From an uncultured virus (IMG/VR IMGVR_UViG_3300046007_012347) (taxonomy: Duplodnaviria > Heunggongvirae > Uroviricota > Caudoviricetes): a stretch of DNA of 20,000 nucleotides. The DNA is taken from the IMG/VR virus record IMGVR_UViG_3300046007_012347; one strand, given 5' to 3'. Within the stretch, counting starts at the first letter, position 1. Each line of letters begins with the position of its first letter. The position numbers were made by a program, and so were the translations under genes. Below are positions 11,612-17,389 of this stretch, piece by piece. The notes beneath the pieces are model-generated. The model made no database searches and was not told where the DNA came from. It saw nothing but the letters and a program-made list of their open reading frames with translations.

Positions 11612-11929
11612 ATGACTAACCAACATCCAATCACCCCACCGCCAGAGCTGGTAGAGCAGTGGATGCAAGATCACGCCACTAGGTACGACTTGGCTCGTCA
11701 AGCCGCCCAATGGGGCAGCGACCAGGAGCTGGAGGCGTGCTGTGAGTGGCTTAGTGTTCCTTGCCCCAGTTACGGACGTGAACTCCGCAATGCCCGCCGC
11801 CCCAAGCCGCCGAGCTTGAAGGAGCAGGCGCTGGCTGAGCTTGAAAGATGGGCCGAAGATAAGTATGGCCTTCACAAAGGGCTGGAAGTTGGCCTCATCC
11901 GCCGCGCTCTGGAGGCACTTGATGACTGA
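11612..11929 (+). CDS. HPITPPPEL-family phage protein, copy 1
   Basis: 105 aa; paralogue of the adjacent gene. Confidence 0.8.
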   Translation: MTNQHPITPPPELVEQWMQDHATRYDLARQAAQWGSDQELEACCEWLSVPCPSYGRELRNARRPKPPSLKEQALAELERWAEDKYGLHKGLEVGLIRRALEALDD

Positions 11930-12527
11930 CAACCACCCGATCACCCCGCCGCCGGAGCTGCTGCAGCTTTGGTTTGAGCAGCGCTACGACTACGACAAGG
12001 GAATCAATGAACTTCTGATTGAAGCCGCTCAGTACGGCGCTGACCAGGAGCTGCAGGCGTGCTGTGAGTGGCTGGAAGAAATTGGCCCGTCAGGAGTACA
12101 GCTATGGGGGGATGATTTGCGTAAGAATCGCCGGCCCAAGCCGCCGAGCTTGAAGGAGGAGGCGCTGGCAGCGTTAGACGACGCGATAATGAGGGGTGAC
12201 TGCATCACTATTTCTGACGCATTGCCAACCATCCGCCGTGCCCTTGAAGAACTTCCTGAGAAAATGACTAACCTCTCTCCCGCCGCGCAGGCAGTGTTTT
12301 GGGAATTTAACAGCGCGTTTGACTGGGTTCAAGATGGTGCTCCAGGACCTCAGTACAAAGCTATTGCCGCTGCCCTGCGAGCTGCTGCGGATCAAGTGGT
12401 GCCAGATCAACAAGAGCCAGCCAGCTCACCGCACATGGGCAATTTCATCACCAATGCACATTGGCGCCAATGCCAAGCTATCCGCACCCAACTCCTCGCA
12501 ATTGCTATCGAGCTTGAAGCCCAGTAG
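11922..12527 (+). CDS. HPITPPPEL-family phage protein, copy 2, fused in frame to an MTNLSPAAQAV module
   Basis: ATG 11922 (MTDNHPITPPPEL) overlaps the copy-1 stop; internal MTNLS at 12264. Confidence 0.75.
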   Translation: MTDNHPITPPPELLQLWFEQRYDYDKGINELLIEAAQYGADQELQACCEWLEEIGPSGVQLWGDDLRKNRRPKPPSLKEEALAALDDAIMRGDCITISDALPTIRRALEELPEKMTNLSPAAQAVFWEFNSAFDWVQDGAPGPQYKAIAAALRAAADQVVPDQQEPASSPHMGNFITNAHWRQCQAIRTQLLAIAIELEAQ

Positions 12528-12595: not shown

Positions 12596-12793
12596 CTAAG
12601 GCCCCTTGAGGGGCTTTTTCTTTGTCCATGTAGTGTCACCAGGAAGAGGCTCCAACCCAAATTCCCAATCGTCGTAATCGGCCATATTTCTTAAAACACT
12701 CGCGTAATCTTCTTCATTGCGAGGATCGTAAACTTCTCCACTTGCCATCCATCGCTTAAGTCTTTCTCTTTCCTGCTCTGCAGAAAGCTTCAT
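12596..12793 (-). CDS. hypothetical protein
   Basis: 65 aa ATG ORF downstream of the candidate ncRNA terminator. Confidence 0.6.
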   Translation of the reverse strand: MKLSAEQERERLKRWMASGEVYDPRNEEDYASVLRNMADYDDWEFGLEPLPGDTTWTKKKPLKGP

Positions 12794-12823
12794 GACATTC
12801 TCCTAGCCCTTTAAGCATAGGCA

Positions 12824-13028
12824 AAAGAAAAGGGGCCTTACAGCCCCTTCCCTTCACATCCTCCGATGCCTCTGTCCCTAAAGATACAAGGGAGATGATG
12901 CGCCTCGCAGGAGACCATGCATAACTCCTTGGCTAAGCCATACGGCTTTGCCCGCATCATCAGAGGCGTCCACCCTCACGGCTCGCCCGAAGACGAGAGC
13001 AGCAATTAAGCCGCCAGGACCGAATGCT
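12824..13028 (-). ncRNA. candidate structured non-coding RNA (~200 nt)
   Basis: Extended -10 TGtTATGAT (13034-13042, minus); hairpins including CUCGUC-UUCG-GGCGAG; long-range helices; intrinsic terminator AAGGGGC-UGUAAG-GCCCCUU-UUCUUUU; no ORF of 60 aa or more across it. Confidence 0.6.
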
Positions 13029-13140
13029 CAAAAATCATAACACGCTTTGTCCGATCGGCAGTAACGGCTGGTTTTATGGCACAATGGGCGTTGCCTTGTC
13101 GGAGACGGCATGGCCCTCGCTAGTTCTTTCGTACTAATTG

Positions 13141-13488
13141 ATGAAACGATTCCTTTTCTCTCTCCTGCTGTTATGCCCCATTCAGGCGCAAGCAGCTCTT
13201 GAATGTGGCTATGCCTCTCATTACGGCATTGGCGACGGCTACCACGGTCAGCGTGCTGCTGACGGCTCTCGCTTCGATGCCTACGGTCGCACTGCCGCCC
13301 ATCCATGGCTTCCATTTGGCACGCAATTGCGCGTGAAGAATCGCAACAATGGAAAGTCAGTGACGGTGACAGTCACAGATAGAGGCCCATACTACGGAGG
13401 CCGAATCTTGGACTTGTCCTACGGCAGCTTCGCTCGCATTGCTTCCCCTTCTCAAGGCGAAGCGTCCATTTGCATCTCAAGATTATGA
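13141..13488 (+). CDS. rlpA: RlpA-like lytic transglycosylase (double-psi beta-barrel) with signal peptide
   Basis: MKRFLFSLLLL signal; GYASHYG, TAAHPWLPFGT.LRV.N..NGKSV.V.VTDRGPY..GRILDLS motifs. Confidence 0.9.
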   Translation: MKRFLFSLLLLCPIQAQAALECGYASHYGIGDGYHGQRAADGSRFDAYGRTAAHPWLPFGTQLRVKNRNNGKSVTVTVTDRGPYYGGRILDLSYGSFARIASPSQGEASICISRL

Positions 13489-14040: not shown

Positions 14041-14247
14041 ATGCCTCTCTCCCGCACTCAACAAGCCATTGCAAAAATGGTTTCCAATAATGTTCGCCAT
14101 AAATGGCAAGATTACAGCTCTGATGATCGTTCTTCTGCTCGCAGCTTTATTCTTTCCCGCGCTAATAAGCCCGCTCATAAGAGCAAGAAAGACCTGCTTT
14201 TAACGCTTGCAAATGCTTTGCAAGATGACATCTGGAAAGTGCTTTGA
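14041..14247 (+). CDS. hypothetical protein
   Basis: 68 aa ATG ORF; stop overlaps the next ATG (TGATG). Confidence 0.6.
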   Translation: MPLSRTQQAIAKMVSNNVRHKWQDYSSDDRSSARSFILSRANKPAHKSKKDLLLTLANALQDDIWKVL

Positions 14248-14438
14248 TGGCAACAAAAGATAATAGAAGAGCAGTAATGGCCTTGGCTGCAAAGTATGGC
14301 TTTATTCTCCAGCGTGAGAAAAAGCACTATGTCTTTAAGCATCCTTCTGGCAAGATATTTTGCACAAGCAAAAGCACTTTAGACAAGCGCTTCCTAAGAA
14401 ACGTTGAAAGTTTTATTAAGCGCACTCTTTCCTCCTGA
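14247..14438 (+). CDS. HicA-like (dsRBD-fold) small basic protein
   Basis: helix - GF...R..KHY.FKHPSG - strand - C-terminal helix pattern; 63 aa, basic. Confidence 0.55.
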   Translation: MATKDNRRAVMALAAKYGFILQREKKHYVFKHPSGKIFCTSKSTLDKRFLRNVESFIKRTLSS

Positions 14439-16678: not shown

Positions 16679-16762
16679 AGAAAATAATTGCTAGCATGGC
16701 GAAACATCGCGAGACTGGCATCTCGTGACGTTTCTAACCACCACCAAAGGAGCAGTTTGGCC

Positions 16763-17389
16763 ATGGCTGAATACAAGCATAGCAACGTGCCTACAGGGTT
16801 TAAGGAGATCCCTGGGTACGACGAACGCTATTTCATCAATGAAAATGGAGAAGTTTGGAGCGTAGCAGCACGGCGATTAATGAGCCAGCAATGGGATGAA
16901 AAGCATCCCTATCCTTGGCTTTTATTGCGTTGCAGTGACGGCAAGCTTCGTACCGTAGCGGTACATCGCATGATGGGTCGCACATGGCTTGAATTGCCAC
17001 CTGGACCTATTGGTAGTAAAAAGGGGGAATATTGCATCAATCACAAGGATGGAAATAAGCAAAACAATAATGCTACGAATCTAGAGTGGATAACTTGTGA
17101 AGAAAACGTGCGTCACGCTTGGATTACTGGACTGAATCAGTCGATAGGGGAAAAGTCTTGTAATACAAAACTAAAGTCTGCTGAAGTTCGCCGAATACGC
17201 AAAGATTTTATTTCCGGGAAATCACTTTCGAGTCTTGCCAATGAATACAAAATGAGCGTACAGGGCATTCACGATATTTGCCGTTTTCGGCGCTGGAAAT
17301 CCCAAGATTTTGACTTGTTGGTCCCAATGAAAGAAAGGTCATCTTCGGTATTTATTGAGAAGTTTATTGACGGCAAAAGCAAAGATTAA
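16763..17389 (+). CDS. free-standing HNH homing endonuclease (NUMOD4 + HNH + C-terminal HTH)
   Basis: FKEIPGY..RY.INENG.VWS (NUMOD4), VHR, INHKDGNKQNN...NLEW.T..EN..HA (HNH), KL....V..IR...LANEY.MS (HTH). Confidence 0.9.
   Translation: MAEYKHSNVPTGFKEIPGYDERYFINENGEVWSVAARRLMSQQWDEKHPYPWLLLRCSDGKLRTVAVHRMMGRTWLELPPGPIGSKKGEYCINHKDGNKQNNNATNLEWITCEENVRHAWITGLNQSIGEKSCNTKLKSAEVRRIRKDFISGKSLSSLANEYKMSVQGIHDICRFRRWKSQDFDLLVPMKERSSSVFIEKFIDGKSKD

Follow-up and report, generated by a model that had tools for sequence, protein, structure and literature searches.

A predicted structured RNA gene next to rlpA in S-CBS4-like cyanophages

The locus and its genes

The DNA analysed here, called the window, is a stretch of 20,000 nucleotides from an uncultured member of the Caudoviricetes (IMG/VR record IMGVR_UViG_3300046007_012347). 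Its primase-helicase is 57% identical to the protein of Synechococcus siphovirus S-CBS4 over 97% of its length, and no other full-length match was found among 50,697 phage records. By protein similarity, the window phage is related to S-CBS4. The rlpA gene and the small downstream open reading frame (ORF) are also syntenic between the two.

Between rlpA (13138-13488, plus strand) and a 65-amino-acid ORF (12596-12793, minus strand) lies a candidate gene for a non-coding RNA. Its transcript is predicted to run along the minus strand over 12823-13029, which is roughly 205 nucleotides with the terminator. The structured body runs from 13029 to 12854, and the CM match covers the same positions.

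The rlpA product has a DPBB_1 lytic transglycosylase domain (PF03330, E 1.4e-20), and its hydrophobic N-terminus is read as a signal peptide. The gene lies outside the RNA as its divergent neighbour. This arrangement, already described in an earlier note made from the window alone, recurs in 97 of the 98 loci with at least 500 nucleotides of flank, and rlpA is also upstream in most of 32 variant loci found later. A small divergent subgroup (L197/L455, L437, L500 and L535) has other genes directly upstream of the RNA, so the tie between rlpA and the RNA looks like synteny and not an obligatory partnership. In this subgroup the RNA core is kept and the P7-P10 arm is rebuilt.

The 5’ leader of rlpA has features of its own. 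In the window it contains a GNRA-capped hairpin (GAGA or GCGA) at 13070-13110 on the plus strand; several of ten leaders folded have one, with differing stems. It is possibly a stabilising or regulatory element. Some rlpA loci without the RNA (L040 around 2370-2420; L044 and L045 around 2310-2350) have a different conserved motif upstream, which on the minus strand reads ACGGACGAATCCG-Y-AAAGC...TTAGGGA and for which Rfam gave no match.

The downstream neighbour is small and acidic, and is a homologue of S-CBS4 gp092. A search at E<=0.001 recovers 46 relatives; family and Atlas searches gave no match. It carries the motif DYDDWExGxEPxPGDxxW, which also starts longer proteins in other phages. 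Its orientation relative to the RNA flips between clades: of 108 loci, 52 have the ORF next on the strand of the RNA and 36 have it on the other strand; the remaining 20 lack it.

The 52 same-strand loci are what one would expect if the RNA were a cis-acting leader or riboswitch for this ORF, but the loci with the ORF reversed or missing do not fit that role. A related idea is that the RNA is the mRNA of a short peptide that starts at a loop NUG codon, and in the window's clade there is indeed an AGGAG ahead of the loop AUG. Against this, the frames from loop codon to AUCGGA are spread 18/20/20 over the 58 of 63 representative copies (see below) that could be counted, where the count took the first matching codon, in some rows not the loop codon. 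The earlier note had also seen an ssrA-tag-like LAA ending in an ORF whose ATG overlaps the -10 box. That reading did not hold up across relatives, as an ORF from this ATG ending in Ala-Ala-stop is present in only 9 of the 63. A cis element or peptide mRNA is thus extremely unlikely.

Further genes in the window were noted along the way. A basic 64-amino-acid ORF at 14244-14438 (plus strand) is phrog_2053, of unknown function, and has no Pfam match; to us it looks HicA-like. Tandem phrog_32006 domains occupy 11612-12527 (plus strand), as a 105-amino-acid ORF followed by a 228-amino-acid ORF with the beginning of a third copy, and this region is closed by a terminator-like hairpin at 12598-12617. 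A free-standing HNH endonuclease gene lies at 16688-17389 (plus strand).

Copies in related phages

Copies of the RNA were gathered by scanning collections of viruses, metagenomes and genomes for its motifs. The scans gave at least 141 distinct matches. Five of these (L392, L439, L456, L458 and L459), with the terminator absent on inspection and no CM match, were dropped as false before counting. This leaves at least 136 distinct copies, or at least 63 at a 90% identity cut, and these form the representative set of 63. The family is diverse. An alignment of 99 rows has a median pairwise identity of 50%, and blastn with the window RNA fails to recover even the S-CBS4 copy, which lies unannotated at 64540-64728 of that isolate and exceeds its counterpart in the window in length.

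Loci can also be fetched by their proteins. RlpA alone retrieved 45 viral loci, of which 36 have the RNA, 3 are cut off early and 6 lack it; in these last 6, RlpA is 54-60% identical. The downstream protein retrieved 43 loci, 41 of them with the RNA. In a survey anchored on the primase, 7 of 15 loci have the RNA, 4.2-6.4 kb from the primase, while the other 8 extend at most 5.5 kb beyond it. Five records of such RNA-less primase loci (18-54% complete) contain no RNA match. Two relaxed scans yielded 127 loci, 32 of them CM-confirmed, including copies with a variant P2 helix.

Each of five near-complete relatives has exactly one RNA match. A CM search of five other rlpA-bearing cyanophage genomes (S-CREM1, S-PM2, S-SZBM1, S-CRM01 and S-CBP4) found nothing, and neither did a blastn search of plasmids with one homologue. 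Across 185,579 species genomes, an exact search for the motif gave 6 matches, 3 real and 3 false, with all the real ones on phage-like contigs of non-cyanobacterial MAGs. These contigs (L454, L455 and L457) are short, come from Bacteroidetes, Rhodobiaceae and Aquiluna MAGs, and are probably mis-binned. In the collections searched, the RNA is found in one cyanophage lineage only. As far as sequence comparison goes, then, it is a gene of S-CBS4-like Synechococcus siphoviruses, retained lineage-wide.

The control elements are conserved as well. The earlier note had pointed to an extended -10 promoter and a U-tailed terminator, and both recur in relatives. The promoter, TG-t-TATGAT, lies at 13034-13042 on the minus strand. 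Its consensus TGnTAnnnT ends 12-16 nucleotides ahead of the equivalent of conserved G13021 in 61 of 63 representatives, which would place the transcription start near 13029-13027. The terminator, GGGGCU-GUAA-GGCCCC plus U tract, lies at 12823-12847 on the same strand. The U tract is present in all 63, and hairpin and tail were scored in 52; on inspection, the stem of the remaining 11 continues into the U tail. A generic promoter and terminator scanner lists neither element; it requires a -35 box, which is why no extended -10 promoter is reported here.

Fold and fixed letters

The minus strand folds with a minimum free energy of -93.3 kcal/mol (z -3.19; 1 of 200 shuffles equally good). The plus strand reaches z -3.95, so folding energy alone leaves the strand undecided. 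The earlier note had taken G-U pairs to fix the minus strand; they do support it, and the assignment also rests on the GNRA and UUCG loops, the promoter and the U-tail.

The fold has ten helices, all on the minus strand. P1 pairs 13022-13027 with 12856-12861 and seals both ends of the RNA, using many pair types. P2 pairs GUCC (13020-13017) with GGAC (12971-12968), and its 5’ strand is flanked by the invariant G13021 and U13016 (together 13016-13021). Then come two hairpins. P3 (12998-13015), GGCGGC-UUAAUU-GCUGCU in the window, has the loops UUAACC, GUAACA, GAAA or UUCG in relatives. P4 (12982-12997), CUCGUC-UUCG-GGCGAG with a cUUCGg loop, is highly variable in length. The stretch 12968-12981 holds P5, a hairpin of two pairs reading CC-GUGA-GG (12981-12974), a linker N-U and the 3’ strand of P2.

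The second domain spans 12868-12967. It is entered through P6 (12967-12963 with 12872-12868), GCCUC(U)/(A)GAGGC, and continues into P7, GAUGAUGCG/CGCAUCAUC (12961-12953 with 12902-12894). P7 carries the arm P8 (12952-12931), AAGCC-GUAU-GGCUU, and P9 (12929-12909), AGGAG/CUCCU, whose loop contains CAUGG at 12919-12915. A GYRAGG-like junction follows at 12908-12903, and then P10, UCCCU/AGGGA (12893-12875). Back at the base, the invariant single strand AUCGGA (12862-12867) lies in the P1/P2/P6 junction. All told there are three three-way junctions, P1/P2/P6 (with strands G, none and AUCGGA), P6/P7/P10 and P7/P8/P9, and the four-way junction P2/P3/P4/P5.

Covariation carries this fold. In an alignment of the 63 representatives that was fitted to the structure, 52 of 56 pairs change on both sides. 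Standard pairs fill 97.2% of 3286 cells, against 42-48% for slid partners, and none of 500 shuffles reaches the observed value. A count free of alignment, made outward from the motif anchors, finds P1 paired in 62-63 of 63 copies at each of its 6 positions and P6 in 59-63 at five positions; slid registers fail overall. Ranked by mutual information in the 99-row alignment, the top 25 pairs all belong to helices, and no pseudoknot shows up.

Most of the helices had been read correctly from the window alone. The strings quoted in the earlier note are all in place, and P3, P4, P7, P8, P9 and P10 as drawn there are upheld by covariation. It had also drawn a long helix, GACGCCUCUG/CAGAGGCAUC. Its GCCUC(U)/(A)GAGGC portion survives as P6, but GGAC turns out to pair with GUCC, and AUCGGA is unpaired. 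P1, the core GUCC/GGAC helix and the two-pair GYRA hairpin had been missed, and GAC had been mis-paired with AUC.

The case for P2 needs some care. The seeming invariance of GUCC/GGAC arises because the search patterns selected those letters. Protein-anchored loci and the relaxed scans contain the variants GUCC/GGGC, GCCC/GGGC, CCCC/GGGG, GUUC/GAAC, GCUC/GAGC and UUUC/GAAA, along with one copy with a C-A mismatch. These variants establish P2 and refute the extension of GAC with AUC, as well as an alternative pairing of UCC with the GGA of AUCGGA.

The same caution applies to the fixed letters: G13021, the last P2 pair (including C13017), U13016, CC-GYRA-GG-N-UG and AUCGGA. Every DNA scan demanded CCG-NRA-GG, and all but two also demanded AUCGGA, so only protein-anchored loci test these motifs without bias. 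Such loci retain the core letters of both, and AUCGGA occurs in each of the 35 canonical copies anchored on rlpA, which were found without the motif, and in the P2-variant copies. All 99 aligned copies, which were pattern-selected, have GUGA, GUAA, GCAA or GCGA as their P5 loop.

The P5 tetraloop (L5) appears to touch P1. Its third position co-varies with the P1 pair 13025-12858: L5 is GYGA with A-U there in 46 of 50 cases, and GYAA with G-C in 33 of 49, the rest being 13 A-U and 3 C-G. A tree that leaves out P1 and those loop columns implies 22 changes of the loop, 13 of the P1 pair and 24 of the joint state; 11 of the 13 pair changes coincide with a change of the loop. Both sides of the pair occupy the top four of 201 column tests, and L5-P1 ranks first in 9224 tests of loops against everything, after a filter for agreement in at least 75 of 99. 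Among 25 further sequences, many from one clade, all 21 GYGA copies have A at this place. A test of independent pairs on well-supported branches, which is underpowered, gives 3.3 the same way and none the opposite way, and is not significant (median p 0.25). The P1 column beside the covarying one shows similar behaviour. By comparison, a covariation of L8 with a P7 pair appears to be clade-driven.

The GUGA tetraloop prefers a CU:AG receptor. In GYRA/helix docking, as described in PMC7913685 and PMC6326782, the loop reaches two neighbouring pairs through its positions 3 and 4, with CC:GG optimal, and covariation of loop position 3 is reported for type I/II A-minor docking. In the phage RNA, loop position 3 co-varies with the pair beside a mostly G-C pair, a pattern that would fit the module of RNase P and group I/II introns. 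Since the covariation is as expected for docking, L5 quite probably docks at 13025-12858, and there is probably a tertiary fold around an invariant core of G, CC-GYRA-GG and AUCGGA.

With a conserved promoter and terminator, a covarying fold and no conserved ORF, comparative evidence indicates that this is an independent non-coding RNA gene, and we hold it to be very nearly certain that its product is a functional structured RNA.

Transcripts and possible roles

Expression data came from four RNA runs (X2, X5, X6 and X15) of four studies, chosen for containing the region. X5 and X6 each have a contig identical to the window, over 12861-13014 and 12862-13012, and X15 has one with 5 differences, over 12846-13013. 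All three contigs lie wholly within the RNA, start within 3 nucleotides of each other and have empty bins on either side. Run X2 covers most of a 3-kb stretch, and this signal may be DNA or general phage transcripts. Contigs lack strand, ends and level, and the runs were selected by region, so the three confined contigs, from three studies, are a hint of a discrete abundant RNA and not proof. The RNA likely accumulates in nature.

The RNA matches no catalogued family. Rfam 15 on the window returns one terminator-only match, ctRNA_p42d, at 24.8 bits against a threshold of 50. Fifteen divergent loci give 25 sub-threshold matches, mostly terminators and none from a riboswitch or ribozyme family; a weak PrrB_RsmZ match (E 2) overlaps one RNA body. 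Within the RNA body, matches as good as E 1 are absent for all Rfam 15 families, including the cyanophage motifs manA, wcaG and PhotoRC, which have the host group in common with it. Possible likenesses to a T-box, SRP helix 8, 16S h27 and the 11-nt receptor were considered; none of them has an Rfam match behind it.

There is a local likeness to tmRNA. P3 of the window contains GCGGCUUAA, which resembles a tag-ending helix, but ARAGORN finds 0 genes and no tRNA in the window, and the consensus fold has no tRNA-like domain (acceptor stem, T arm) and no CCA end. GCN GCN TAA, or Ala-Ala-TAA, occurs in P3 of only 10 of 63. The RNA is not a tmRNA, and the earlier note had not recognised it as one.

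A ribozyme, acting on itself or on host or phage RNA, would suit the compact invariant core, whose unpaired junction letters could equally form an active site. GYRA/helix contacts are frequent in group I/II introns and RNase P, as described in PMC2275092. That module would be the only thing the RNA has in common with them; no catalytic-core family scores, and the Rfam searches match no known self-cleaving class. In three runs single contigs cross the core from P3 to AUCGGA, a weak argument against efficient self-cleavage inside it, and its own promoter and terminator would leave a self-cleaver little to process. We consider this role quite unlikely.

The junction could instead be a ligand pocket. 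A free aptamer would sponge up a small molecule, such as a nucleotide alarm signal, at the G/AUCGGA junction and have no expression platform. A three-way junction whose unpaired purines never vary and which a GNRA contact clamps would suit a pocket as well as it suits protein binding, and c-di-GMP-I riboswitches share this general layout. But we know of no natural free-standing aptamer sponge, and given that no riboswitch family scores in Rfam, such an aptamer seems unlikely.

Loops are another place to look for function. The phi29 pRNA is a phage RNA of about this size that contains multi-way junctions and is transcribed from a promoter of its own, and the RNA studied here could similarly be virion-associated and multimerise. 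The CAUG of L9 is self-complementary, and at least four self-pairs are possible in 96 of 99 copies, a figure that also counts pairing within the loop. No two different loops, however, are more complementary within sequences than in the between-sequence control. The P9 loop has CAUGG in 69 of 99 copies and UGR in 95, and one clade does without UGG. The RNA sits among small ORFs some 10 kb from terL, and S-CBS4 encodes a TerL, portal and head protease of the usual kind, hence a TerL/portal motor. A pRNA-like role is very unlikely. Pairing of the loop UGG with the CCA of tRNAs was also considered and dropped, with UGA variants uncompensated and the UGG missing in that clade.

P4 CI and P1 C4 are antisense or immunity RNAs with which cloverleaf-like junctions invite comparison. 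An RNA of this type, with loops pairing to phage leaders, would fit a stand-alone gene beside an early-type operon. It would not explain why the hairpin loops are short and freely swapped (UUAAUU, GAAA, UUCG). The sole fixed single strand is six letters within a junction, and the RNA overlaps no gene. An antisense role is likewise very unlikely.

What is left is a stable RNA that acts in trans by its three-dimensional shape, as a protein decoy or scaffold. We give this a probability of roughly 45%, and we arrived at the decoy role by elimination. Helices that tolerate any sequence, next to junction letters that stay constant, are typical of shape recognition. In outline, host RNA polymerase would transcribe the RNA early in infection from the extended -10 promoter. 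The P5 tetraloop would dock in the minor groove of P1, clamping the four-way junction P2/P3/P4/P5 onto the three-way junction P1/P2/P6 and thereby gathering the invariant letters (G13021, C13017, U13016, CC-GYRA-GG, UG and AUCGGA) into a compact core. The P7-P9 arm would offer a second, more variable surface. Ends sealed in P1 may lend stability and let the RNA accumulate, and the junction core would bind and hold one partner. For a decoy this would most likely be a host protein that acts in defence, in RNA turnover or in translation, and for a scaffold a phage protein. Roles other than those named here have a small chance.

Other highly structured, stand-alone RNAs of orphan function are known: raiA, ROOL, GOLLD and OLE. 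According to a preprint (bioRxiv 10.1101/2024.12.08.627333), phages or prophages encode ROOL and GOLLD, and raiA is a monomer of 205 nucleotides. The cyanophage RNA differs in having no Rfam match, no pseudoknot or kissing-loop signal and no tRNA in the window, and in being confined to one cyanophage lineage.

No description of this family turned up in the openly accessible literature. The main text of PMC5737381 mentions neither cyanobacteria nor rlpA, a term search of PMC12873609 gives no phage, and in PMC10690425 the passages and four supplement files searched give no motif or RlpA match. That last study has 8,495 unnamed IMG/VR candidates, and a fragment of the RNA may be one of them. The earlier note's suggestion of an undescribed structured phage RNA thus stands, on covariation, the conserved promoter and terminator, the RNA-confined contigs and the absence of Rfam and ARAGORN matches.

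What is new here is the RNA family and its fold; the function may be of a known kind. To our knowledge, few new RNA classes of about 200 nucleotides combine four junctions with a tertiary clamp. Earlier RNAs of comparable complexity were ribozymes, riboswitches or RNP cores. It is conceivable, if rather unlikely, that the RNA represents a functional class of its own, with the G/AUCGGA junction as its pocket or active site, and by itself binds a host alarm nucleotide or cuts host RNA. If true, this would be the RNA counterpart of anti-defence sponge proteins.

Across a diverse freshwater and estuarine cyanophage lineage, the RNA is found at a fixed locus. The cultured pair of S-CBS4 and Synechococcus CB0101 carries it, so its expression, structure and partner are directly testable.
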